The position numbers and the translations under genes are program-made. From an uncultured virus (IMG/VR IMGVR_UViG_3300033149_005651) (lineage: Duplodnaviria; Heunggongvirae; Uroviricota; Caudoviricetes), in IMG/VR virus record IMGVR_UViG_3300033149_005651: a stretch of DNA of 64,000 bases. One strand, 5' to 3'. Below the pieces are notes generated by a model. That model was not told the DNA's origin. It ran no database searches and saw only the letters and a list, made by a program, of their open reading frames with translations. This document shows positions 18,765 through 64,000 of this stretch, one piece after another. Numbering within the stretch: the first letter of the stretch is position 1; every line of letters starts with the position of its first letter.

Positions 18765-19337
18765 CTACATGAGTGGAATATCGATAGTCAACATTCTAAA
18801 TATGGTCCCCCATAACCGTTCAAGTATCCATGGTGATTGTTGATCACTCTTTATATATGTGAGCACTGATTGGTAAAAATCAATCGGTTTGCTCTCCAAC
18901 CGTTTCTGACTCACCATAAACTGAGCCCCATGTACAAAATGATATCTATCAAATGTCCGTCCGAGCATAGACCGGCACACAGCGTCGACCTTTAGCCCTC
19001 TATGATGGGGGGACCCATTCCCTTCACACGCAAGTTTACGACCAATCTCGATATAATCGATTTTGTGTTTGTGTTTATCAATGTTATCGATATCACTGAT
19101 GAAGTTTTTAGCGTGAGGGAATGGATTCCCCTGGCAGAATACCGTGTGACCATCTAATTGACCGTAATTGTTAACAATATGCTGGATGTATGTATCCGCT
19201 TCTCTGCCAATATTTTTCAGATGAATACTTCCCGCTATCGGTTTATCACTTTTATCGTAAACAACGACATCATGACTGGCTTTAAGTTGTTCAGCCCATC
19301 GCACATCTTCCTCATATTTCGCGATCACGATTATCAT
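18765..19337 (-). CDS. DUF3431-family protein (glycosyltransferase-like)
   Basis: VIAKYEED, NIGREADTY, TVFCQGNPFPH, GAQF, ERLW. Confidence 0.8.
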   Translation of the reverse strand: MIIVIAKYEEDVRWAEQLKASHDVVVYDKSDKPIAGSIHLKNIGREADTYIQHIVNNYGQLDGHTVFCQGNPFPHAKNFISDIDNIDKHKHKIDYIEIGRKLACEGNGSPHHRGLKVDAVCRSMLGRTFDRYHFVHGAQFMVSQKRLESKPIDFYQSVLTYIKSDQQSPWILERLWGTIFRMLTIDIPLM

Positions 19338-20725
19338 TCATTCACTTTCATCCTGATCACATTGCCCCAACTTGGTCCCTCTGTTTGATTTTCTGGGGTT
19401 GTGATCACGCAAATGTAGGGGAATTTCTTATCTTCCGACCAATTTGCATGACCATCAGTGAGCATCACCGTACAATCGGGCACCAAACCATTGTCACACA
19501 ACCACTCCATCGGTGCAGCCATGTCTGTGCCTCCACGTCCTTTGATGGTCAATTTCTTCCAATCGCCACGACGGTAGGGGTCGTAGCCTTGGAATTGTGC
19601 ATCCCATTGCAGGATTGTGACTTTAGCACGGCTGCTAATCGATTCGATTTCGCCAAAGAATTGTTCTAATTCTTTTTTACCGACCGAACCGCTCGTATCG
19701 ATGATCACACAAACGGTTGCAGCAGCATGGTGGCTGACTCCAGCCATGCCGAACATACGACGACGACGGTTTCGTCGTGAGTAAGTTTTCCGTTGATTCC
19801 CAACATGCTTACCAAGATAAGATCTGAGTAAATCACGCCACCGAACTACTGGCTTAGCTAGCTCTTTGATCGCAGCTTCAAGATGACCGGGGCAATGTCC
19901 CTGACATTTCTCGGTCGCTTGATCGACCAAATCCTTGATCAGTTGACGAGCTTCATCAGCAGATACATCCGATTGGTTCCAGACACTGTGGTCATCGATA
20001 ACCTTTCCGCTAACACCGCCGAAGCTGTATTCGCCAGTAGTTTCTTGCCCACATTGCCCACATTTTTCACCTTCACCTTCGCCACCGCCGTCTCCGTCTT
20101 CACCTTCTTTACCTTTTCCCTTCCCCTTTCCCTTCCCGCCGCCGCCGCCTTTTTCTTTGAGTGGTTTACCACATTGTCCGCAGCATTTGCCTTTTTTGGA
20201 CTGGTTCTTTTCAAGTCTTTCGTAAAAATACTCGGTAGTTTCATCATTTGGCCAGTCTTCTGGGATCCAGACGATATTACCTTTCAGCGGTACGATCAAC
20301 TCGCTCGTTGTCGGTTCTTGGTATCCGATCCGGGGCTTGTTGCGGCGACCGTTGACGCACATATCAGCGGCAATATTCCAGGCTTCTGGGTTTCGATGAT
20401 CACTGCGTGTGCAATGACATCGGACAATGTGCTCGATTTCATGCTGGATGACCGCGAACAATTCCTTGATTGTGAGCGTGTCAACAAATGGGGGATAATA
20501 CATGCACTGGATATCACCGCCGTTGACGATTCGAACCCCCATTGTTCTCCTTGATTCCGGCATCCAAGGCATAGCCGACGGAATCCAAATCATGCCCATC
20601 GCAACGTGCCCATACCAGGGTTCGCGTGTCATAAGCCTGCAGCGTGCATTCATCAGTCTTTCAGACTGTTCTTGCGTTGTCTTGATCTTAGCGTTTCCCA
20701 AGACCACCATATTATTCGTGCTCAA
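19334..20725 (-). CDS. DUF2201-type metallopeptidase-like plus vWA domain protein
   Basis: HEIEH, WNIAAD, DTSGS MIDAS motif, GRGGTD, LTDG. Confidence 0.88.
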   Translation of the reverse strand: MSTNNMVVLGNAKIKTTQEQSERLMNARCRLMTREPWYGHVAMGMIWIPSAMPWMPESRRTMGVRIVNGGDIQCMYYPPFVDTLTIKELFAVIQHEIEHIVRCHCTRSDHRNPEAWNIAADMCVNGRRNKPRIGYQEPTTSELIVPLKGNIVWIPEDWPNDETTEYFYERLEKNQSKKGKCCGQCGKPLKEKGGGGGKGKGKGKGKEGEDGDGGGEGEGEKCGQCGQETTGEYSFGGVSGKVIDDHSVWNQSDVSADEARQLIKDLVDQATEKCQGHCPGHLEAAIKELAKPVVRWRDLLRSYLGKHVGNQRKTYSRRNRRRRMFGMAGVSHHAAATVCVIIDTSGSVGKKELEQFFGEIESISSRAKVTILQWDAQFQGYDPYRRGDWKKLTIKGRGGTDMAAPMEWLCDNGLVPDCTVMLTDGHANWSEDKKFPYICVITTPENQTEGPSWGNVIRMKVNE

Positions 20726-24038: not shown

Positions 24039-25406
24039 TTAATCATCAGTATCGTCGCCCGTTGTCCCCCACGAAACCCTCGACAGAGCACTTTGCAAAT
24101 CCGGGCGTTCGGTGAGTCGATCGATGAAATTCTTCTTCGTTGATCCAGCCCGTGTGTTGAACTTGGCGATCATCGTCGCCAGTCGGGGATTGGAGATCAC
24201 CGCAACACGAGCCTTTTCCTGATGGTCGCTGGTGTTTCCGCCGCTGACCAAGGCTCGGCAGAATGCCACGACAACATCCTTGTCATGAGCGTGCTTCACC
24301 ATGAAGGAGGCAAAATCCAAACAAACCTCAGCGGTTTTATCCTCGTCGATATTGCCCTTGGCGAATGACACCAGACCCCACATTAGGCCGGTCAATTGGT
24401 TCCGATTCAAACCTTTCAGTTTCTCCTCGAAAACCGCCACACCACGAGACATCAACTCACGAGGCTTGACAGGACAAGAATGTCGGCTGAATGAACGACT
24501 CAGTTCCCGACCGATCAAACCAGCAAGCACTTCCTCACGAGCATGATCCTGGAATCCATTCTGTGCACAAGAATCGTAGACCCGCACAACTTGATCCCAA
24601 GATCGTCGTGACGGCTGGACTGAGAAGCCCAATTCGCCGGGGATATCACCATCCAGATGCTTGACATTCTGAGAGGCAAATTCGATCACGTCCGCCGCAT
24701 GGCTACCATGCACATCAGACATCCAGTTGACCCATTCCTCTAGCGTTGTCGCACCACCAGAAAGTGTCAGATGACAGAAACGATCCAGAAAAGCTGGATC
24801 ATTGAAACCGGACACCATGTAGCCTTCGGTGAAATTACCGGCAGCCACGACACACCACCCTGGCGGGAGGACATACTGACCGACGCGGCGATCGAGAACC
24901 AACTGGAAGATGGCCTGCAAAACGTCATCTTGGGCTCGGTTGACTTCGTCGATGAACAGGATGCCATTTTGGAATCGCGGCTGCAAGGTTTGCAACTTGG
25001 CGTAATACTGCCGTTCTGTCTCTAGGTCAGCTTGTTCGAGTGCTTTGCGGATTTTATCCGCAATCGCATCTTGACTGAGCCCTTCGACCGATATCCCGAT
25101 GGTCCCTGCTAGTTGGGCAGTGATTTCTTCGCGAGTCAGGTCACCAACAGGCATGTCAGCAGGCGGCAGATAATGCGTCCGAAAGTCATCCTTCAGACCG
25201 AGATTCACACCTGTTTCTGGCAAGCCACGCACATCGGATGCTTCTAACTGTGAGCATCGGAGATCGAGGAATCCCCAACCGCTCTCTCCCGCCAGTTGAT
25301 GAACAAGACTCGATTTTCCGAGTCCTCGGTGCCCCCAAATGAATGGAGTAATATTTGCCGCTCGACAAATCTTGATCGCTTCCGTGATTGCACTAATTGT
25401 TGCCAT
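24039..25406 (-). CDS. MoxR-type (AAA_5) ATPase
   Basis: Walker A GHRGLGKS, Walker B LFIDEVNRA, AAGN, DRF, SRRSW. Confidence 0.9.
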   Translation of the reverse strand: MATISAITEAIKICRAANITPFIWGHRGLGKSSLVHQLAGESGWGFLDLRCSQLEASDVRGLPETGVNLGLKDDFRTHYLPPADMPVGDLTREEITAQLAGTIGISVEGLSQDAIADKIRKALEQADLETERQYYAKLQTLQPRFQNGILFIDEVNRAQDDVLQAIFQLVLDRRVGQYVLPPGWCVVAAGNFTEGYMVSGFNDPAFLDRFCHLTLSGGATTLEEWVNWMSDVHGSHAADVIEFASQNVKHLDGDIPGELGFSVQPSRRSWDQVVRVYDSCAQNGFQDHAREEVLAGLIGRELSRSFSRHSCPVKPRELMSRGVAVFEEKLKGLNRNQLTGLMWGLVSFAKGNIDEDKTAEVCLDFASFMVKHAHDKDVVVAFCRALVSGGNTSDHQEKARVAVISNPRLATMIAKFNTRAGSTKKNFIDRLTERPDLQSALSRVSWGTTGDDTDD

Positions 25407-39474: not shown

Positions 39475-39897
39475 TTAACCAGCAAGGCTTTTAGCCACTG
39501 CGCCAGGATCTTTCTGCAAATCATCGACATATTTATCGAAAACATCCTTTGACACTGTCATTATTTGATCCAGACTCCAAGTTTTTGTTGTTGGTTTGGT
39601 TGGCTTATATGGACCAACCCATATAATGCAGGTAATTTCAGCAGTCTTATTTGATTCAAAAGCGAAAATCGCACTTTGAACATCCGGAATCCATTGTCCA
39701 TCTTGATTCAAAATGATGAATTTACTAGGTTCCGAATCACAAATTATGCAAAATACTGACGCAGCAGCAGCACTATTGATTGTGATAGCTGGGGTGTTAA
39801 CAATCGCATCTTCCGGATTCAAATTAATTTCGGCATCTTGAGCAAACAATGCTCCTATACCCAAAACCAGAACCAAAGCTAAAGCGAGCCATTTCAT
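39475..39897 (-). CDS. Secreted or membrane protein with a signal peptide
   Basis: MKWLALALVLVLGIGALFA-Q. Confidence 0.75.
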   Translation of the reverse strand: MKWLALALVLVLGIGALFAQDAEINLNPEDAIVNTPAITINSAAAASVFCIICDSEPSKFIILNQDGQWIPDVQSAIFAFESNKTAEITCIIWVGPYKPTKPTTKTWSLDQIMTVSKDVFDKYVDDLQKDPGAVAKSLAG

Positions 39898-39922
39898 GTT
39901 TCTACTCCAAAAATTGTTTGCA

Positions 39923-40423
39923 TCAAAAAGTAGGACGATCAACAAGATGTTCGGTGAATACTTCACTCGAAACTTGATTTGTTACTGTGTTATAATTGCT
40001 AGTATTAAAATACCATGCATCTGTTTCATCTTTACAAAATTCATTCATTAAATCTAAACCAACAACTTTTGCAATCGGTAAAAAACAATGAGGACAACTA
40101 CTCCAACCATATTTTTCTAGTATTTCGAATTCCATAGATTCATGCGTATCCATTTGGAACAAATCCAAGAAGCATTCTTCTGGAGTTTTAGGATTTCCCC
40201 CATATTTAACACAATACTCTGACATTTCGATAGAATATTCTTTGAACGCTATTTTAAATAATTCTGCTACTTCTGTTGGATTTTTATCTTTTTCGACAAT
40301 AAAGTAAAAAGGAATAACAGCAACAGAAGCCCCTTCAATGTGCCCTTTCGCAAGCAATACAAGGTACTGCTTCCATCCTTTTTTTCTTAATTCTTGATAA
40401 GATTCGAAATATTGTTTACCCAT
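39923..40423 (-). CDS. Hypothetical protein
   Basis: 166-aa ORF. Confidence 0.7.
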   Translation of the reverse strand: MGKQYFESYQELRKKGWKQYLVLLAKGHIEGASVAVIPFYFIVEKDKNPTEVAELFKIAFKEYSIEMSEYCVKYGGNPKTPEECFLDLFQMDTHESMEFEILEKYGWSSCPHCFLPIAKVVGLDLMNEFCKDETDAWYFNTSNYNTVTNQVSSEVFTEHLVDRPTF

Positions 40424-40479
40424 CGCTAAGTCTTCAAAGAAAGGTTATTGTAAAAGTGCTTAATTTTCAATACATAAAT

Positions 40480-40790
40480 CAAGGTCGCCAAATATTCCAT
40501 TTTTGACGACCTTGCTAAACCCTATTTGGCGGAGATCTTGGACGAATTAGCTTCCTGCCATCGTCTCACTCCTATTATAATATTTTAACATTTTACGGCG
40601 ATGCTCTAATTTTCATAATAGTTTCCCTTTGTCTTGTCTTGTTTTGTTAAATTTTGTTGTGACATCAAAAATCATATGGGGATCATGGACCTTGGTCTTA
40701 CCCCTATTTTCTACACCATCAGTTCCATCTGATGTTACTCATTCGGAGATCCTGGACGAACTTATGGTCCTACCGTCGTCTTACCCCTTA
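40480..40790 (-). ncRNA. Candidate structured RNA with three kink-turn-like hairpins and a 13-bp hairpin
   Basis: Three repeats GGRG-URA-GAC..GUC-CAN-GAU-CYCC with compensatory changes; G.U pairs favour the minus strand. Confidence 0.55.
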
Positions 40791-40803
40791 GTATTTTTAC
40801 TTT

Positions 40804-40870
40804 ACTGTAACTTGTGTTTCTTCTACTACTACTGTAACTTGTTTCTTCTACTTGTGTTTCTTCTATTACT
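40804..40870. repeat. Low-complexity tandem repeats (ACTGTAACTTGT / TTTCTTCTA)
   Basis: Directly visible. Confidence 0.7.
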
Positions 40871-40955
40871 CAATTTCTTTTGCTTCTTTTTCTGTTCCCC
40901 TTTCTAAAGAACTTTTAAAGTACAACTATAAAATACGTAAAGATAAAAGCACTAC

Positions 40956-41108
40956 CTATTCCTTAGGATCTCGCAATTCTTCCTTATCGCATATTATATG
41001 TGCACCAAACAGCGTCATAACTTTAACATCATTATTATCAATCGAAAGAAGTGTTACCAATTCCCCGCGATAATCATATTCGTTGCCTACTATAAGAGAA
41101 TTCATCAT
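40956..41108 (-). CDS. Small hypothetical protein (50 aa, not in the track)
   Basis: SD GGAG; MMNSLIVGNEYDYRGE... Confidence 0.6.
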   Translation of the reverse strand: MMNSLIVGNEYDYRGELVTLLSIDNNDVKVMTLFGAHIICDKEELRDPKE

Positions 41109-41120
41109 TATTTCTCCGAA

Positions 41121-42023
41121 TTAAGATGTGATTATAATCGTTTGATCCATATATCGCAAAGCACGATCATCCGCCGCTTCTAGTTGTAAAAATTGAGTAA
41201 CTGTGGGATACCCAGCAGAATTCGGAATATTCAAATCTGGAATAACTCGATGATCATGACCCATCATAAATGCATCCCCGAGCACATTTTGCCCAATAAT
41301 CACATTACTATTTTGGTCAATCTTGAACAAACCAACCCTAACAACATTCGTAGAACCAACTGCTTCGTCCTCGAATGGATATTCCAACCCATCGCCACCA
41401 TTGAATAATTCATCAACATCTGTCTGTACTAGATCTTTATCCCATACCATCAATGAATCAAGATCATATGCCAAAAGACTATTTTTAGCCCAGTTCGAAC
41501 CAACAGAAATCCTATCAACTTCATAAGCTGGACCTGCCCACCCAGGATTGCCTATAAATTCGACTGTATCGACCCATATAGAGTTAGACCCAGTGACCTC
41601 ATTAAAAGAAGCCGCCACATGGTGCCAATCTAAATCCTGAACTATTGGAGCAGGGGACAAACTCCTAGAACCGGCCACAGCTTTATGTTGTACATTCCCA
41701 GAGGACCTACTTAATTGACCATATGCTACGGTTGTAGCAGTGCTTTGCGATAGCAATATAACTATTCTATCTGTATTACTTGCTATAGTTGGAAACTTAA
41801 TCCAATAGGACCAGCTTATACTACTAGTTGTTAAGATAAGTCCGCCAAAAGATCCTTGTTGGAGAACACGATCCTGAGTTCCATCGAATCTCCAACCTTT
41901 TCCTTTCTTGCCTGGGACAAAGTTATCAGCACCGGTTGCTATTAATTCTGTTCCATTTACTTTGCCTATTAAGGAATTATTAAAATTCCAGGCTTCTACT
42001 GGTGTCTTGTCTTTGATTGCCAT
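41121..42023 (-). CDS. LamG/concanavalin A-like domain protein (virion-type)
   Basis: WHHVAASF, SIWVD, LDSLMVWDKDL..DVDELFN. Confidence 0.8.
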   Translation of the reverse strand: MAIKDKTPVEAWNFNNSLIGKVNGTELIATGADNFVPGKKGKGWRFDGTQDRVLQQGSFGGLILTTSSISWSYWIKFPTIASNTDRIVILLSQSTATTVAYGQLSRSSGNVQHKAVAGSRSLSPAPIVQDLDWHHVAASFNEVTGSNSIWVDTVEFIGNPGWAGPAYEVDRISVGSNWAKNSLLAYDLDSLMVWDKDLVQTDVDELFNGGDGLEYPFEDEAVGSTNVVRVGLFKIDQNSNVIIGQNVLGDAFMMGHDHRVIPDLNIPNSAGYPTVTQFLQLEAADDRALRYMDQTIIITS

Positions 42024-42037
42024 CTATTACTCCCTAA

Positions 42038-42114
42038 AGGGTCTGGGCAGACTCGAAACTACCAACGACACGACGAAATGAATCGCCGCCGCTCTACCTT
42101 TGAGCTACAGACCC
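42038..42114 (-). tRNA. Atypical tRNA-like gene (extended anticodon stem, loop TTCATT, 8-nt T-loop)
   Basis: GGGTCTG/CAGACCC acceptor stem; canonical D-arm; anticodon ambiguous (CAT or TCA). Confidence 0.6.
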
Positions 42115-42519
42115 TATCTTAAGACGAGCGACGTTCATCTATTGTTGTTATCAGCCACTCGTTAGCATAATCATTAATTTCTTTTTCACACGCATCAACA
42201 CCATGCCATAACTCCAATCCTTCATTGATGCTTTCAGACGGTGTTCCAACACCAATACAAGCTTTCCAAAATTCTAAACGCAATGCCGCCTCTGCATATT
42301 TGCTTTGAATAGGAAGGTTTTTAGCATGACGATACCATTCTTTTCGGCAATCATGGCAAAGCCACGCAACCAACCCGAAAGCCATTTGAACTTCAAGACA
42401 AAGAGGATCAGGTTTTGAAGCATTTTCCCCCGCTCCACATCTTTCACAACATCGAATAGGCCGAACATGTTGCTGTTCTGACCATTCATCATATTCATCG
42501 TACATATAATTCCTTTGAA

Positions 42520-44135: not shown

Positions 44136-44163
44136 CACCTTACATAGAGCTAGAACTGAGAAG

Positions 44164-44244
44164 TGGGAGGCAGAGGAATTGAACCTCCAGGTGCCACCCA
44201 GCATTAACCAACGAGTTTACAGCCCGCCGCTGGGAATACCTCCC
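44164..44244 (-). tRNA. tRNA-Tyr(GTA), lacking a normal D-arm
   Basis: Acceptor GGGAGGT/GCCTCCC, loop CTGTAAA, T-arm GGAGG-TTCAATT-CCTCT. Confidence 0.7.
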
Positions 44245-44248
44245 CGAG

Positions 44249-44319
44249 CAGGCCCTTCCGGATTTGAACCGAAACTTCAGCTTTTGGAGAGCAGTGTGCT
44301 ACCATTACACTAAGGACCC
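44249..44319 (-). tRNA. tRNA-Trp(CCA)
   Basis: Cloverleaf; loop CTCCAAA. Confidence 0.9.
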
Positions 44320-56769: not shown

Positions 56770-57065
56770 AGATTTCTCTTTTCTAGTGATGATAAAAATA
56801 CCCTATTCTGTTAGAAGTGTTGCAAACTTGATTAAGATGTTAATATTTTTGATAAAGCACAATTTAAATACATAAAAAATATGTTTCAAGTTTTATGCCC
56901 GATTCCAAAGCATTAACATCGCTCTCCGGCTGGGCTTATCTTCGCCGCTGCTCTTTTTACCACTGATCCATATCGGCGCTATACCCATCAAAACCATATA
57001 AGTTGTCATAAGGATTCCCTCCATAATATCTTTGCAGCCCAAAAATAGAAATGGAGAAAATTTTT

Positions 57066-60000
57066 ATGGCTAATATACGATATTGTTTCGGTCCATGGCA
57101 ATGGACCAGTATACCAGAAGGTGGGGGTTACTGGGGACCCCCACCAGATACTATAGGACTGCTTGATCTTGGCTCACTACCCGAGCAAAGTCAAGCAGGT
57201 TCAGACAGTATACTAGAAAGACCTGCGGGTTTATTCTGTATCCCAGATTCTGTATCAACCCCATCTGGGTATGTTCTGTTAGATATCGGCGATTGCCGAA
57301 ATATCACAGCAATTCGGCGTCACACCGATCTCATCGAATCAGCTCTAGGTATCGATCTATCAGCCTATAAAGGCAAAAAATTATCTGAATTAATCTTCGA
57401 AATACTCCAAGCCGGGGACCCCACTGGCGAGGGATTATGGAAGCCATTACAACCAACCACCAGAGGAATCCTAGAAGTACGTCTTGGCGGACATTCTGCA
57501 ATCCACACAAAGAAATTCCAGTGGGAAACATCCTCATACGCAAACAAATTACGAGATCTAATTCGTCATGACCTAAAACAAACAACAGAAATAGAAGGTC
57601 ACAATGTAGCCCGCAAGGTACTAGGTGCATATTGTCAGAAATACTTCGGGAATTATAAAGATCCAAGATTCAGGGAATTCCTAACACCAAATGAAGCTGA
57701 TTTTGAACCTAGTAAACCAGAAACATCCATCAGTGATGATTTCAACCGATCGGACGCAAACACACTTGGCACTAACTGGACGCATGATGGAAATTACGAA
57801 ATAGTATCAAATCAAGCAAAAGCAACATCATATGGAGGGCAAGACCACGCCTATTATGGTACTGCTTTATCATCTGCTGATCAAAAAATGTCAACTGTCA
57901 ACACAGGATCAAGTGGTATCTACGTTGCCGGTGCTGGAAGAATGCTGGCGAATACAACCACAAGAACAGCTTATTTAGCATCATGGAATGGCTCACTACG
58001 GCTTCTCGGAAAAGTCGTATCTGGCTCATTTACTTCGTTAAGTCAAAACAATCCAGCCACTAACCCAACCGGTGAAAAAGGCGAATTAACATGTGATGGA
58101 TCATCAATATCAGCCGAGTATACCGGCGTTGGTTCATATTCATTAGGTCCAGTAACTGACACCGCAATCACTGGAAACACAAGAGCCGGACTATGGACCA
58201 ATAATCATGGATTCATAGCACAAGACACTTTTGTCGCAGAAGATTTACCAGCAGAAGTTTCAAAAACACATACTACTGATGCTAAATTAGACGATAATAC
58301 CGAAACCAGAACTCATACCACAGATGCTAAATTAGACGATGGCTCAACAGAATATTCAAAAACTCATACCACCGATGCTCTACTAAAAACAGAAGATACA
58401 CCAAAAACCCATACCACAGATGCTTTACTAAAAGCAGAAGGCATCAAGACCCATACCACCGATACCAAACTCCAAGCCGAGGGACTAACAAGAACTCACA
58501 CCACCGATGCACTACTCCAATCCGAAGGACTAACAAGAACCCATACAACCGATGCACTACTCCAAGCCGAAGACATCACCAAGACTCATACAACCGATGC
58601 ATTACTCCAAGCCGAAGACATCACCAAGACTCATACAACCGATGCTAAACTAGCTGCTGGTACAACAGAATACTCAAAAAATCACACTACTGATGCTTTG
58701 CTACAAGTAGAAAATGTACCAAAAACTCATACAACAGATGCTCTATTAACTAGCGAAGGATCAGAAGATCATACAACAAATGCACTACTCAAAGCCGAAA
58801 AATCAAAAGACCACATTACCGACGCTCTGTTACAATCCGCCAATAATGCTTGGGATCATACAACCGATGCTTTATTATTCGCTGAAGAATCAAAAAATCA
58901 CACTACCGACGCATTATTACAATCTATTAATAACTCTAGGACTCATACAACTGATGCTCTATTATTCGCCGAAGAGACAGAGAATCACACAACCAACGCG
59001 TTACTATTCGCCGAAACAACTAAAGACCACACTACTGATGCTTTACTTCAAGGTGGTGGTGGGATATACCACCTAACAAATGCTCTCCTACAAGCGATTA
59101 ATAGTTCTAAGACCCACACTACCGACGCATTATTACAATCCACCGATAACTCTGAGAATCACACAACAGATACTCTATTATTCGCCGAAGAATCGGAGAA
59201 TCATACAACTGATGCATTACTTCAAGCAGCTGATAATGTTAAGACTCACACTACTGATGCATTACTTCAAGGTGGTGGTGGGATATACCACCTAACAAAC
59301 GCTCTCTTACAGTCCATCAACAACCCTAAGAATCATACAACTGATGCATTATTATTCGCCGAAGAGGCAAAGAATCACACAACAGATGCATTATTATTCG
59401 CTGAAGAGACAAAGAATCACACAACTGATGCTTTACTTCAAGGTGGTGGTGGAATATATCACTTAACAAATGCTCTTCTACAATCCGTCGATAATACTAA
59501 GATTTATACAACTGACGCATTATTACAAGCCGAAGAGTCAGAAGATCACACAACTGATGCATTATTACAAGCGATCAACAATTCTAGGACTCATACTACC
59601 GATGCGTTACTTCAAGGTGGTGGTGGGATATACCACCTAACAAACGCTCTCTTACAGTCCATCAACAACCCTAAGAATCATACAACCGATGCGTTATTAT
59701 TCGCCGAAGAATCAGAAGACCACACAACTGATGCATTATTATTCGCTGAAGAATCAGAAAATCATACAACTGATGCTCTATTATTCGCCGAAGAGACAGA
59801 AGACCACACAACAGATGCACTATTATTCGCTGAAGAATCAGAAAATCATACAACTGATGCATTACTCCAAGCGGTTGATAATGCTAGGACTCATACTACC
59901 GATGCGTTACTTCAGGGCGGTAGTGGGATATACCACCTAACAAACGCTCTCCTACAATCCGTCAATAACTCTAGGGCTCACACTACCGACGCTCTCTTAC

Positions 60001-63000
60001 AGGCGACTAATAATACTAAGACTCACACTACCGACGCTCTATTATTCGCTGAAGAGACAGAAAATTATACAACAGATGCTTTACTTCAAGCGGTTGATAA
60101 TACCTGGGTTCATACTACCGATACATTACTTCAAGGCAGTGAAGAGACATATCACCTAACAAATGCCCTCTTACAATCCGCCAACAATACTTGGACTCAC
60201 ACAACTGACGCTTTATTATTTGCCGAAGAATCAGAGAGTCATACTACTGATGCACTGCTCCAAGTAATCGACAATTCTAGGGTTCATACTACCGATGCTT
60301 TGCTTCAAGGCGGTGGTGGGATATACCACTTAACAAATGCGTTGCTCCAGGCGGTTGATTACTCTAGGGCTCATACAACAGATGCATTATTACAATCCAT
60401 CGACAATTCTGAAGATCATACAACAGATGCGTTATTATTCGCTGAAGAATCAGAAGATCATACAACCGATGCGTTATTACAAGCAATTAATAATTCTAGG
60501 ACCCACACCACCGATGCTTTGCTTCAAGGTAGTGAGGGGGTATATCACCTAACAAACGCACTCCTACAATCCACCGACAACTCTAAGAATCATACAACAG
60601 ATGCTCTATTATTCGCTAAAGAATCAAAGACTCATACTGCCAATGCTCTGCTACAATCTATCGATAATTCTAAGATCCATACAACTGATGCTTTACTTCA
60701 AGGTGGCGGAGGAATATATCACCTAACAAACGCTCTCTTACAAGCTGAAGAATCAAAGACCCATACTACCGACGCTCTGCTACAATCCACCGATAACACT
60801 TGGGACCATACAACAGACGCTCTATTATTCGCCGAAGAGACAGAAAATCATACAACCGATGCATTACTCCAAGCGATCGACAATTTTAGGATTCACACTA
60901 CTGACGCTCTGCTTCAATCTATCGATAACTCTAGGGTTCACACTACCGATGCGTTACTTCAAGGTGGTGGTGGGATATACCACCTAACAAACGCACTCCT
61001 ACAATCCATCGATAATTCTGAAGATCATACAACAGATGCATTATTATTCGCCGAAGAGGCAGAGAATCATACGACTGACGCATTATTATTCGCCGAAGAG
61101 ACAGAAAATCATACAACCGATGCATTACTCCAAGCGATCGACAATTCTAAGATCCACACTACTGACGCTTTGCTTCAAGGCGGTAGTGGGATATACCACC
61201 TAACAAACGCTCTGCTACAAGCGATTGATAATACTAGGGTTCATACTACCGACGCTCTTCTACAATCCATCGACAATGATAAGAGCCATACAACCGATGC
61301 TTTATTATTCGCTGAAGAATCGGAGAACCACACAACAGACGCTTTGCTTCAAGCGGTCGATAATTCTAGGGATCACACCACCGATGCTTTGCTTCAAGCA
61401 GTTGGCACAAAGACTCATACTACCGATGCGTTACTTCAAGGTAGCGAAGGGATATACCACTTAACAAACGCTCTTCTACAATCCGTCAATAATTCTAAAG
61501 ATCATACAACCGATGCTTTATTATTCGCCGAAGAGTCAGAAGACCATACAACTGATGCTTTATTATTCGCTGAAGAGACAAAAAATCATACAACCGATGC
61601 TCTATTATTCGCTGAAGAGACAAAAAATCATACAACTGATGCCTTGCTTCAAGGTAGCGAAGGAATATATCACTTAACAAACGCTCTTCTACAATCCATC
61701 AATAATTCTGAAGATCATACAACCGATGCTTTATTATTCGCCGAAGAGACAGAGAGCCATACTACTGATGCACTGCTCCAAGCAGTTGATAACTCTAAAA
61801 TTCATACTACCGATGCTTTGCTTCAAGGCGGTGGTGGGATATATCATTTAACAAACGCTCTCTTACAAACGGTTGATAATTCTAGAACTCACACTACCGA
61901 TGCTTTACTACAAGCGGTTAATAATGCTAAGAGCCATACAACTGACGCTCTACTATTCGCTGAAGAATCAGAAAATCATACAACCGATGCATTACTACAG
62001 TCCATTGATAACACCTGGACTCATACAACCGACACTTTGCTTCAAGCGATTGATAACCCTAAGACTCATACTACCGATGCTCTGCTTCAAAGCAGTGAAG
62101 AGGCATATCACCTAACAAATGCTCTCTTACAATCCACCAACAATACTTGGACTCATACAACTGACGCTTTATTATTCGCTGAAGAGACAGAGGACCATAC
62201 GACAGATGCGTTACTCCAAGCGGTCGATAACTCTAAGATTCACACCACCGATGCTTTGCTTCAAGGCGGTGGTGGAATATATCATCTAACAAATGCGTTG
62301 CTACAAGCGATTGATAATACTAGGGCTCACACAACAGATGCATTATTACAATCCATCGATAATTCTGAAGATCATACAACAGATGCGTTATTATTCGCTG
62401 AAGAATCAGAAGATCATACGACTGACGCATTACTGCAAGCAATTAATAATGCTAAGAGCCACACTACCGATGCTTTATTATTCGCTGAAGAATCAAAGAC
62501 TCATACAACTGATGCGTTACTTCAAGCAATTGATAACACCTGGGCTCATACAACAGATGCATTACTCCAATCCATTAATAATACTAAGACTCATACTACC
62601 GATGCTTTGCTTCAAGGTAGCGGTGGGATATACCACCTAACAAACGCTCTTCTACAATCCGTCAATAATGATAAGAGTCATACGACAGATGCTCTATTAT
62701 TCGCTGAAGAGACAAAGAATCACACCACCGATGCATTACTCAAAGCAATTGATAATACTAGGATCCACACCACCGATGCTTTACTTCAAGGCGGTGGTGG
62801 GATATATCATTTAACAAACGCTCTCTTACAAACGGTTGATAATGCTAAGACCCACACTACCGATGCTTTATTACAAGCGGTTAATAATGCTAAGAGCCAT
62901 ACAACAGATGCATTATTATTCGCTGAAGAAACAGAGAATCATACGACTGACGCATTACTGCAAGCAATTAATAACACCTGGACTCACACAACTGACGCTC

Positions 63001-64000
63001 TCTTACAATCCATCGACAATGATAAGAGTCATACAACCGATGCGTTATTATTCGCCGAAGAAACAGAGAATCATACGACTGACGCATTACTGCAAGCAAT
63101 TAATAATGCTAAGAGCCACACTACCGATGCTTTATTATTCGCTGAAGAGACAGAGGATCATACAACAGATGCGTTACTACAAGCTGTCGATAATGCTAGG
63201 AATTATACGACAGATGCGTTATTATTCGCTGAAGAATCGGAGAACCATACAACAGACGCTTTGTTACAAGCGGTCGATAATGCTAAGACTCACACAACAG
63301 ATGCTCTGCTTCAAGGTAGCGGTGGAATACATCACCTAACAAATGCTCTCCTACAAGCCGTCAATAATTCTGAAGATCATACAACTGATGCATTATTATT
63401 CGCCGAAGAGACAAAAAATCACACAACTGATGCATTATTATTCGCCGAAGAATCAGAAGATCACACAACTGATGCTTTGCTTCAAAGTAGTGAAGAGATA
63501 TATCACCTAACAAATGCATTACTGCAAACAGTTGATAATGATAAGAGCCACACAACAGACGCATTATTATTCGCTGAAGAGACAGAAGATCACACTACCG
63601 ACGCACTGCTCCAAGCAGTCGATAACTCTAAGATCCATACAACCGATGCTTTGCTTCAGGGCGGTAGTGGGATATACCACCTAACAAATGCGTTATTACA
63701 ATCCATCGATAACACTAAGATTCACACTACTGACGCTCTCTTACAAGCTGTCGATAATACTAAGACTCATACAACAGATGCTTTATTATTCGCTGAAGAA
63801 TCAAAGACTCATACGACTGACGCATTACTCCAATCCATTGATAATACTAAGACTCATACAACCGATGCTTTATTATTCGCTGAAGAGACAAAGACTCACA
63901 CCACTGATGCATTACTCCAATCCATTGATAATACTAAGAGTCATACAACCGATGCTTTGCTTCGGAGCAGTGAAGAGATATACCACTTAACAAATGCTCT
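57066..64000 (+). CDS. Giant virion/fibre-type protein with HTTDALL repeats (partial, >2300 aa)
   Basis: SD GGAG, ATG at 57066 (MANIRYCFGPWQW...), ETSISDDFNRSD..LGTNW motif; no stop seen before the edge, so absent from the track. Confidence 0.88.
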   Translation, partial: MANIRYCFGPWQWTSIPEGGGYWGPPPDTIGLLDLGSLPEQSQAGSDSILERPAGLFCIPDSVSTPSGYVLLDIGDCRNITAIRRHTDLIESALGIDLSAYKGKKLSELIFEILQAGDPTGEGLWKPLQPTTRGILEVRLGGHSAIHTKKFQWETSSYANKLRDLIRHDLKQTTEIEGHNVARKVLGAYCQKYFGNYKDPRFREFLTPNEADFEPSKPETSISDDFNRSDANTLGTNWTHDGNYEIVSNQAKATSYGGQDHAYYGTALSSADQKMSTVNTGSSGIYVAGAGRMLANTTTRTAYLASWNGSLRLLGKVVSGSFTSLSQNNPATNPTGEKGELTCDGSSISAEYTGVGSYSLGPVTDTAITGNTRAGLWTNNHGFIAQDTFVAEDLPAEVSKTHTTDAKLDDNTETRTHTTDAKLDDGSTEYSKTHTTDALLKTEDTPKTHTTDALLKAEGIKTHTTDTKLQAEGLTRTHTTDALLQSEGLTRTHTTDALLQAEDITKTHTTDALLQAEDITKTHTTDAKLAAGTTEYSKNHTTDALLQVENVPKTHTTDALLTSEGSEDHTTNALLKAEKSKDHITDALLQSANNAWDHTTDALLFAEESKNHTTDALLQSINNSRTHTTDALLFAEETENHTTNALLFAETTKDHTTDALLQGGGGIYHLTNALLQAINSSKTHTTDALLQSTDNSENHTTDTLLFAEESENHTTDALLQAADNVKTHTTDALLQGGGGIYHLTNALLQSINNPKNHTTDALLFAEEAKNHTTDALLFAEETKNHTTDALLQGGGGIYHLTNALLQSVDNTKIYTTDALLQAEESEDHTTDALLQAINNSRTHTTDALLQGGGGIYHLTNALLQSINNPKNHTTDALLFAEESEDHTTDALLFAEESENHTTDALLFAEETEDHTTDALLFAEESENHTTDALLQAVDNARTHTTDALLQGGSGIYHLTNALLQSVNNSRAHTTDALLQATNNTKTHTTDALLFAEETENYTTDALLQAVDNTWVHTTDTLLQGSEETYHLTNALLQSANNTWTHTTDALLFAEESESHTTDALLQVIDNSRVHTTDALLQGGGGIYHLTNALLQAVDYSRAHTTDALLQSIDNSEDHTTDALLFAEESEDHTTDALLQAINNSRTHTTDALLQGSEGVYHLTNALLQSTDNSKNHTTDALLFAKESKTHTANALLQSIDNSKIHTTDALLQGGGGIYHLTNALLQAEESKTHTTDALLQSTDNTWDHTTDALLFAEETENHTTDALLQAIDNFRIHTTDALLQSIDNSRVHTTDALLQGGGGIYHLTNALLQSIDNSEDHTTDALLFAEEAENHTTDALLFAEETENHTTDALLQAIDNSKIHTTDALLQGGSGIYHLTNALLQAIDNTRVHTTDALLQSIDNDKSHTTDALLFAEESENHTTDALLQAVDNSRDHTTDALLQAVGTKTHTTDALLQGSEGIYHLTNALLQSVNNSKDHTTDALLFAEESEDHTTDALLFAEETKNHTTDALLFAEETKNHTTDALLQGSEGIYHLTNALLQSINNSEDHTTDALLFAEETESHTTDALLQAVDNSKIHTTDALLQGGGGIYHLTNALLQTVDNSRTHTTDALLQAVNNAKSHTTDALLFAEESENHTTDALLQSIDNTWTHTTDTLLQAIDNPKTHTTDALLQSSEEAYHLTNALLQSTNNTWTHTTDALLFAEETEDHTTDALLQAVDNSKIHTTDALLQGGGGIYHLTNALLQAIDNTRAHTTDALLQSIDNSEDHTTDALLFAEESEDHTTDALLQAINNAKSHTTDALLFAEESKTHTTDALLQAIDNTWAHTTDALLQSINNTKTHTTDALLQGSGGIYHLTNALLQSVNNDKSHTTDALLFAEETKNHTTDALLKAIDNTRIHTTDALLQGGGGIYHLTNALLQTVDNAKTHTTDALLQAVNNAKSHTTDALLFAEETENHTTDALLQAINNTWTHTTDALLQSIDNDKSHTTDALLFAEETENHTTDALLQAINNAKSHTTDALLFAEETEDHTTDALLQAVDNARNYTTDALLFAEESENHTTDALLQAVDNAKTHTTDALLQGSGGIHHLTNALLQAVNNSEDHTTDALLFAEETKNHTTDALLFAEESEDHTTDALLQSSEEIYHLTNALLQTVDNDKSHTTDALLFAEETEDHTTDALLQAVDNSKIHTTDALLQGGSGIYHLTNALLQSIDNTKIHTTDALLQAVDNTKTHTTDALLFAEESKTHTTDALLQSIDNTKTHTTDALLFAEETKTHTTDALLQSIDNTKSHTTDALLRSSEEIYHLTNA
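58268..64000 (+). repeat. Coding tandem repeat, 42/45-bp units, roughly 130 copies
   Basis: CAYACNACNGAYGCNYTNYTN recurs every 42-45 bp. Confidence 0.95.

Follow-up and report, generated by a model that had tools for sequence, protein, structure and literature searches.

Background

Kink-turns are docking sites for proteins of the L7Ae family, and synthetic RNA switches in wide use are based on them. Regulatory kink-turns in nature are documented mainly in archaea; in bacteria they are represented by a few riboswitches and the OLE RNA. The box C/D type is built from a C box of consensus RUGAUGA and a D box of consensus CUGA, with a G-C pair at position 4b.4n. Here we describe three related hairpins that lie on the minus strand of a non-coding gap of 532 nucleotides (nt) in the DNA of an uncultured virus (IMG/VR record IMGVR_UViG_3300033149_005651), of which a stretch of 64,000 nt, hereafter the window, was analyzed. 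Judged from their letters, the hairpins fit the published definition of a kink-turn.

According to a review of the motif, a kink-turn consists of a three-nucleotide bulge with G.A and A.G pairs directly 3' of it. L7Ae uses a helix to read G1b and G2n, and a hydrophobic loop to cap L1 and L2. The same review gives G at 3n or C at 3b as the rules for folding in metal ions (Mg2+) alone, and describes the box C/D and U4 kink-turns as folding only with protein. An A at position 2n is a rare variant, yet it forms a kink-turn in a solved complex with L7Ae (PMC3985660). Kink-turns in archaeal 5' untranslated regions bind L7Ae and control translation (PMC5539422), and in OLE RNA, a bacterial non-coding RNA, a kink-turn is needed for the binding of OapC (PMC9723947). 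The UAA/GAN and UA_handle loops are described as GNRA-like internal loops that serve RNA-RNA contacts (Jaeger et al. 2009, PMC2615604). Literature searches on kink-turns in phages listed no natural phage RNA made of repeated kink-turn hairpins.

Three related hairpins in a non-coding gap

The gap occupies positions 40424-40955, between open reading frames (ORFs) of 50 and 166 amino acids (aa) that are both encoded on the minus strand. Among the stretches of the minus-strand gene block that lack ORFs and tRNAs it is the longest, followed by ones of 260, 251 and 232 nt; this ranking sets aside two low-complexity plus-strand ORFs inside the gap. In the order of the minus strand, the hairpins are R3 (40745-40787; GGGG-UAA-GACGA[16 nt]UCGUC-CAG-GAU-CUCC, the outer stem GGGG/CUCC including one G.U pair), the short R2 (40678-40704; GGGG-UAA-GAC[CAAG]GUC-CAU-GAU-CCCC) and R1 (40531-40572; GGAG-UGA-GACGA[15 nt]UCGUC-CAA-GAU-CUCC), in which the inner stem GACGA/UCGUC is lengthened by UGGC/GCUA. 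Another hairpin, H4, has 13 contiguous base pairs (bp) including one G.U and lies at 40480-40514, also on the minus strand. The observation of three related hairpins is confirmed, and these and the 13-bp hairpin all lie on the minus strand where a preliminary description of this DNA had placed them.

The three copies share the minus-strand frame GGRG-URA-GAC...GUC-CAN-GAU-CYCC; a search of both strands of the window with a strict regular expression for it matched R1, R2 and R3 and no other place. Repeat finding in the window likewise paired the three with each other. A covariance model was built from the three copies, a step that the preliminary description had proposed, and within the 64 kb it retrieved R1 (66.1 bits), R3 (64.1 bits) and R2 (36.3 bits) and no further copy, the next best match scoring 10.7 bits (E 1.5).

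R1, R2 and R3 are paralogues and hence do not represent three independent events; it is the pattern of their divergence that is informative. The alignment of R1 with R3 shows 6 differences in the 16 apical columns and 3 in the 27 of the stems and loop core. These three core differences are the A or G opposite U in the outer stem (A-U versus G.U), the base at 2n and the third base of the bulge. The flanks of the three copies can no longer be aligned, and the apical part ranges from 4 nt in R2, where it is a CAAG tetraloop, to 16 nt in R3. Covariation of the outer stem had been reported earlier, and it holds for one pair, which is A-U in R1, G-C in R2 and G.U in R3; it does not hold for the other three pairs, which are invariant G-C in all copies. 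The inner stem of R2 had been drawn with four pairs. A fourth pair would leave a loop of 2 nt, and a 3-bp stem with a CAAG loop is the better structure.

Agreement with the kink-turn definition

When the inner or apical stem is taken as the canonical (C) helix and the outer stem as the non-canonical (NC) helix, the bulged strand is the 3' strand, which reads UCGUC (C helix), C-A-N (L1-L3), G1b, A2b, U3b and CYCC. The opposite strand reads GGRG, U3n, R at 2n, A1n and GACGA. R1 and R3 have GACGA/UCGUC as the C helix and R2 has GAC/GUC, each with C-G at -1b.-1n; the NC helix proceeds through G.A, then A.G or A.A, then U.U at 3b.3n to the four pairs of GGRG/CYCC. All three copies have the C and NC helices that the definition calls for. 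In R1, the bulge CAA is followed by a G-A that stands opposite the G-A of UGA, as defined for the bulge and its G.A and A.G pairs. By its letters R1 fits the standard kink-turn throughout, and R2 and R3 are non-standard, with A2b.A2n; the minus-strand letters thus bear out the earlier reading of R1 as canonical and of R2 and R3 as having A at 2n.

Invariant in the three copies are G1b, A2b, A1n, L1 (C) and L2 (A), and L3 (A, U or G) is the sole free base of the bulge. The positions G1b, L1 and L2, which L7Ae-family proteins contact, are accordingly constant, and G2n is kept in R1 only. Since U.U at 3b.3n obeys neither of the rules for folding in metal ions, the kinks of R1-R3 would depend on a protein or a tertiary contact. 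The earlier reading of the hairpins as kink-turn-like is sustained by their agreement with the definition, the invariance of the L7Ae-contacted bases, the precedent for A at 2n and the presence of the motif on the minus strand only.

The hairpins share with box C/D-type kink-turns the 3-nt bulge, the G.A and A.G pairs, a U.U at 3b.3n that breaks both rules for ion-only folding, C-G at -1b.-1n and the Watson-Crick continuation of the NC helix. They differ in having no C box (RUGAUGA), D box (CUGA) or guide region, in having C-G at 4b.4n in place of the consensus G-C, and in the placement of the bulge on the 3' strand with the C helix apical; in addition, 2 of the 3 copies have A at 2n. A box C/D sRNA was considered and rejected, as the hairpins read NGAUC and GURA in place of the boxes and match no Rfam snoRNA or sRNA model. 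The A2b.A2n of R2 and R3 is also that of Kt-23 of Thelohania solenopsae, described as an L7Ae-bound kink-turn (PMC3985660). Kt-23 is ribosomal and the variant is described as rare, whereas here it is the majority form (2 of 3 copies).

Strand and coding potential

The strand that carries the motif is the strand of the flanking genes. Two G.U pairs are strand-specific, one in the outer stem of R3 and one in H4, and both become A.C on the plus strand, so the earlier statement that such mismatches read as G.U on the minus strand only stands, with two pairs behind it. The folding energy of R1 is -13.2 kcal/mol on the minus strand versus -10.6 kcal/mol on the plus strand, and that of H4 is -18.5 versus -14.1 kcal/mol. 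On the plus strand the internal loop becomes AUCNUG opposite UYA, which allows no kink-turn reading.

No minus-strand ORF of at least 30 aa occurs in the gap, and the plus-strand ORFs of 92 and 73 aa within it have no Pfam match, in agreement with the earlier view that this gap of ~530 bp holds no convincing ORF. Each of the three minus frames contains TAA, TAG and TGA, so that the gap stays non-coding whichever single stop is reassigned. Recoding of stops through a nearby tRNA-like gene with a UCA-containing loop was rejected on the same ground. The distance of 67 nt between R2 and R3 is not a multiple of 3. An RNA hairpin is favored over coding sequence or duplex DNA sites because the loops are variable (4-16 nt), the G.U pairs exist on the minus strand only and stops fill all minus frames.

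Inside R1, at 40548-40574 on the minus strand, AGGAG is followed after 7 nt by AUG GCA GGA AGC UAA, which amounts to a mini-ORF of 4 codons behind a Shine-Dalgarno-like word. We take this as a coincidence, because R2 and R3 lack this AUG. A second mini-ORF, of 7 codons, is found at 40592-40615.

Search for relatives

Rfam 15 returned only six tRNAs above the gathering score in the whole window and nothing in the gap. When 40300-41100 was searched with E values up to 10, only three unrelated weak matches appeared, all below threshold: SpF39 (23.1 bits versus 60), CRISPR-DR53 (18.6 versus 45) and rli40 (9.9 versus 100). No match to the gap was obtained with blastn in GenBank phages or plasmids. 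In IMG/VR, a loose form of the hairpin motif occurred at at least 118 loci, and among the matches listed the four outer pairs were present in 5 of 118, versus ~2.3 expected by chance on our own arithmetic. Two strict forms gave 0 and 1 match there, the one match being in a contig that appears G+C-rich from the letters of the match, and the apical motif gave 0 matches. Motif loci in metagenome contigs (12) and species genomes (9) were rejected as chance matches: the GC content was 0.50-0.73, there was one match in each, and ~8 were expected on our own count.

The neighboring genes were also used as queries. In IMG/VR, no relatives of the 166-aa and 300-aa ORFs were found. The 506-aa ORF has one relative of 97% identity in the protein collection and none in the metagenome contigs. 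Among the public sequencing runs, one DNA run contains a small share of the window's words, and no RNA run was among the matches listed. Of the contig pieces from that DNA run, 13 of 14 are at least 99% alike to the window, and none covers 40015-41618. The element is outside every described family and would be a variant of the kink-turn type.

Possible function and alternative explanations

The hairpin set is probably a real structured RNA element. What we say of its function we infer throughout from the sequence. We tentatively propose that the leader of ORF 39923-40423 contains an RNA element, read from the minus strand, in which three hairpins serve as protein-dependent kink-turn docking sites. 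This is the likeliest of the readings considered, although we regard it as quite possible rather than probable. The gap would be transcribed together with its neighbors from the minus strand, and its RNA would carry three paralogous hairpins, each formed around a box C/D-type kink-turn and each offering a docking site to a single molecule of a kink-turn-binding protein. A host member of the L7Ae/YbxF/YlxQ family or a phage protein could play this part, and with U.U at 3b.3n the kink would form only when held by the protein or by a tertiary contact. With less confidence, we suggest that a three-site ribonucleoprotein (RNP) would assemble in the leader, upstream of H4, and act in cis on the fate of the transcript, that is, on its stability, its processing or read-through at H4. 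Blocking of the ribosome-binding site is disfavored, because that site lies 108 nt downstream of R1.

Two described systems offer partial parallels. The archaeal l7ae and nop5 mRNA leaders also place a kink-turn hairpin in a leader, where a trans-acting protein reads it (Daume et al. 2017, PMC5539422). Compared with the leaders described there, the present locus distributes three copies along 260 nt, the one closest to the start codon is 108 nt away from it and has another hairpin in between, the downstream gene encodes neither L7Ae nor a known RNP protein, and the genome is phage-like, with a host that is more likely bacterial. OLE RNA resembles the element in being a non-coding RNA with a kink-turn, for which a dedicated protein is known; as described, it is ~600 nt long, conserved in Bacillota and has one site (PMC9723947), and it gave no match in the Rfam searches made here.

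Several results weigh against the proposed docking RNA. Only one stem pair covaries, and it does so among three paralogous copies; with no homologues found elsewhere, the test for compensatory change comes down to this pair (A-U, G-C, G.U). R2 and R3 lack G2n, one of the two guanines read by L7Ae. A UAA/GAN or UA_handle loop would suit these letters as well. When the kink-turn hairpin is defined loosely (C stem of at least 4 bp, NC stem of at least 3 bp, G.U allowed, either orientation), the window has 188 occurrences, mostly within genes, and because of this frequency the motif by itself is weakly informative and the case rests on the repeated, conserved and non-coding context. Folding of the whole region is no better on the minus strand (z -2.27) than on the plus strand (z -2.39). 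A scan of 39800-41300 called neither a promoter nor a terminator on the minus strand of the gap. Homologues of the hairpins or the gap were not found in GenBank phages, plasmids, IMG/VR, metagenome contigs or species genomes. As for the partner, no match to the L7Ae family (PF01248) was found by Pfam in the 112 ORFs (52 + 60) scanned in the window, which is part of a genome. The few indications of the host lean toward bacterial, to judge from the DksA/TraR, DMP19 and ParB domains and the clusters of an RmlD-like protein described below, and L7Ae homologues are patchy in bacteria; to our knowledge, L7Ae is universal in archaea.

The hairpins might instead bind no protein and carry a UAA/GAN or UGA/GAN (UA_handle) internal loop, a module that makes A-minor RNA-RNA tertiary contacts; the three would together fold into a single RNA of ~300 nt that has a function of its own. 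We consider this unlikely. R2 and R3 set 5'-UAA-3' opposite 5'-GAU-3' in the same helix context as the published ccUAAg/uGAagg, R1 reads UGA/GAU and a UGA/gAN variant is described, and in all of these UAA or UGA stands opposite GAN beside a G-C-closed helix (PMC2615604). In the same account, the UA_handle permits bulged bases and 'UA_handle turns' kink the helix; read in that way, the hairpins would pair U3n with A2b and leave U3b bulged out. GGYAGGA and UAA, which are common to the apical parts of R1 and R3, would moreover be needless in a pure protein-docking site. The published loop is 3x3 (PMC2615604), however, and the loop here is 3x6, with 6 nt on the 3' strand. The three additional bases, of which the third is free, sit where the bulge of a kink-turn sits and give the 3+0 asymmetry of that motif. 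No long-range partner is evident, folding of the whole region is unremarkable and no Rfam family was matched. The three extra bases on the 3' strand thus point to a kink-turn over UAA/GAN, although the letters alone are insufficient to decide. About as unlikely, in our estimate, is an element that works as DNA, its kink-turn likeness being a coincidence, in which the repeats are sites or single-stranded DNA hairpins for a phage protein of replication, packaging or transcription (iterons, a pac site or hairpin promoters). The gap does contain local direct repeats and A+T-rich stretches (GC 0.27-0.33), it is the largest stretch free of ORFs and tRNAs in its gene block, and each hairpin has one GATC; three GATC in ~260 nt are nevertheless near the ~1 per 280 nt that we calculate from base composition. 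The distance between the arms varies by 12 nt, which a dimer site in duplex DNA would not tolerate, the conserved asymmetric 3x6 loop is meaningless in duplex DNA, and the G.U pairs would turn into A.C on the opposite strand. Neither skew nor gene context supports an origin or packaging site: the cumulative GC skew continues in a straight line past 40.7 kb, without an extremum at the gap, and no replication or terminase gene was recognized beside the gap.

A similarly low probability is assigned to functionless local duplication, in which a small hairpin was copied twice in a decaying intergenic region and fits the kink-turn by chance. Other recent local duplications exist in the region, kink-turn-like patterns are frequent by chance and conservation outside the contig was not found in the searches made. 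Against this, the stems and core are intact despite diverged flanks and 6 of 16 apical changes, the changes that did occur are pair-compatible or structurally free, and, by our own estimate, about 1/64 of arbitrary conserved 3x6 loops would agree at 1b, 2b and 1n and have a purine at 2n, both orientations counted. Type III toxin-antitoxin modules consist of head-to-tail, near-identical RNA units, a terminator hairpin and a toxin of ~170 aa from the ToxN/AbiQ/CptN family. The succession of repeats, H4 and the 166-aa ORF resembles the ToxIN/AbiQ layout in part order and ORF size, and the hairpins would then be antitoxin units. We hold such a module to be highly improbable, as the copies do not form a head-to-tail array (they begin 83 and 132 nt apart and are of unequal length), Tandem Repeats Finder (TRF) reports no array over R1-R3, the 166-aa ORF matches no toxin family in PADLOC or Pfam, and no ToxN, AbiQ or CptN chain is among the fold matches listed.

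The preliminary description had suggested that the RNA might serve a kink-turn-binding protein as scaffold or sponge, or function in packaging. No result supports these roles; no homologue was found and no L7Ae-family gene was found among the 112 ORFs scanned. A multivalent kink-turn decoy or scaffold RNA of a bacterial virus, a short transcript whose three protein-dependent hairpins capture a host protein of the L7Ae/YbxF/YlxQ type or a ribosomal protein, or build a phage RNP, perhaps with the 166-aa protein, is distinctly unlikely on present evidence. If it were true, the synthetic L7Ae/kink-turn switches would have a natural counterpart in a virus, and phage non-coding RNAs would gain a new class. 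More generally, if the hairpins bind protein, large uncultured phages would be using the motif for RNP building or for the titration of a host factor, and the locus would supply a compact, testable RNA of ~330 nt. If they bind no protein, the locus would still be a clean case for the discrimination of kink-turns from UAA/GAN loops by sequence.

The downstream gene

The gene that follows the gap is the ORF of 166 aa at 39923-40423 on the minus strand. By its position, its product is a candidate partner of the hairpin RNA. It belongs to an unnamed family with members of ~125-168 aa: an exhaustive HMMER search gave 18 usable remote relatives with 27-45% identity, after one repetitive match of 1338 aa had been dropped. 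A word-indexed search found only the protein itself, for which 7 contigs are recorded, alignments of the family gave no match in IMG/VR and tblastn gave none in GenBank phages. AlphaFold with the 19-row alignment produced a model with a predicted local distance difference test (pLDDT) score of 90.4 and a predicted template modeling (pTM) score of 0.85; the model from the single sequence (pLDDT 39.5) was unusable. Foldseek found no match to the model in PDB or BFVD at E up to 0.001, VIA-align found no like fold among 48,161 chains (best Z 2.8), and Atlas gave no usable match to the protein. No L7Ae-like fold was among the matches listed for the model. An APOBEC-like deaminase, to which weak matches pointed (Pfam E 0.03 and 0.057; PDB 5hx4_A, E 0.079), was rejected, as the CPHC motif (CxxC) is not conserved in the family.

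Other parts of the gap

Upstream of the gap, and forming its boundary, is the ORF of 50 aa at 40956-41108 on the minus strand, which has a good Shine-Dalgarno word, GGAG, 6 nt before its ATG. Local direct repeats in a purine-rich tract follow at 40803-40870 (minus strand), upstream of R3; they comprise two copies each of AGAAGAAACACAAGU and ACAAGUUACAGUA, exact copies of which occur only at 40803-40870. TRF described 40803-40852 as 1.9 copies of a consensus unit of 27 nt. Between R3 and R2, at 40717-40734 on the minus strand, is a small hairpin of 6 bp, CAUCAG[AUGGAA]CUGAUG, with folding energies of -7.1 and -7.0 kcal/mol on the two strands. R2 and R1 are separated by an A/C-rich, weakly structured spacer (40573-40677, minus strand), which contains (GACAA)n at 40629-40647 and a TATAAT at 40576-40581 that ends 3 nt ahead of R1.

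The arms of H4 are 16 nt long and 88% complementary. Just ahead of H4 stands AAAUAGGGUUUAG, a sequence similar to the 5' start of R2, and the stem of H4 is followed by AUUUAUGUAUUG, with 7 U in 12. It was not called a terminator in the scan of 39800-41300, and it could be a weak terminator or a stabilizer. An antiterminator formed by CGCCAAAUA, just 3' of R1, with the 3' arm of H4 was rejected; the forced alternative fold has -23.3 versus -35.0 kcal/mol and is thus 11.7 kcal/mol worse.

Genomic setting

The window looks like part of a large and very dark phage. Its GC content is 40.7%, and between ~2 and 52 kb the ORFs of at least 150 aa are mostly on the minus strand, as are all tRNAs called by Rfam (6) and ARAGORN (9). 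Among the 52 larger ORFs, 11 have a Pfam match and 6 a PHROG match, and no structural or replication gene was recognized in the window by these scans. DksA/TraR, DMP19 and ParB domains are present among the ORFs, and the nearest clusters of an RmlD-like protein are from Uroviricota, Verrucomicrobiota and Planctomycetota. Shine-Dalgarno-like words stand ahead of many ORFs. The 80 nt upstream of eight tRNA genes share no promoter word recognizable by eye. A DUF2201 metallopeptidase/VWA protein (phrog_1314) and an AAA ATPase (phrog_1297) are encoded at 19334-20725 and 24039-25406 on the minus strand; the best tblastn matches of the DUF2201 protein in GenBank phages are in jumbo phages (Salicola SCTP-2 and the PA5oct group), with 24-31% identity. 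From a peak near 4-6 kb, cumulative GC skew declines steadily as far as 64 kb; this peak, the sole turning point in the window, may mark a replication or transcription boundary.

Two of the ARAGORN calls are unusual. The 79-nt tRNA-like gene at 42037-42115 (minus strand), labeled SeC|Met, has an 8-bp acceptor stem and an 8-nt anticodon loop with UCAU and went uncalled by Rfam at gathering score; it may represent an opal suppressor or a selenocysteine-like tRNA, unless the call is false. The 96-nt tRNA-Tyr at 44163-44258 (minus strand) overlaps the tRNA-Trp by 11 nt, has mismatches in the acceptor stem and is unseen by Rfam; this call is probably false.

On the plus strand, an open frame of more than 2316 aa spans 57051-63998 and runs off the window. 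It contains near-identical DNA repeat families of ~29 and ~38 nt, seen on the antisense strand, for example at 59758, 59800, 61582 and 63415 and at 60299, 61431 and 63956. Because there are several such families, the giant protein would be internally repetitive.

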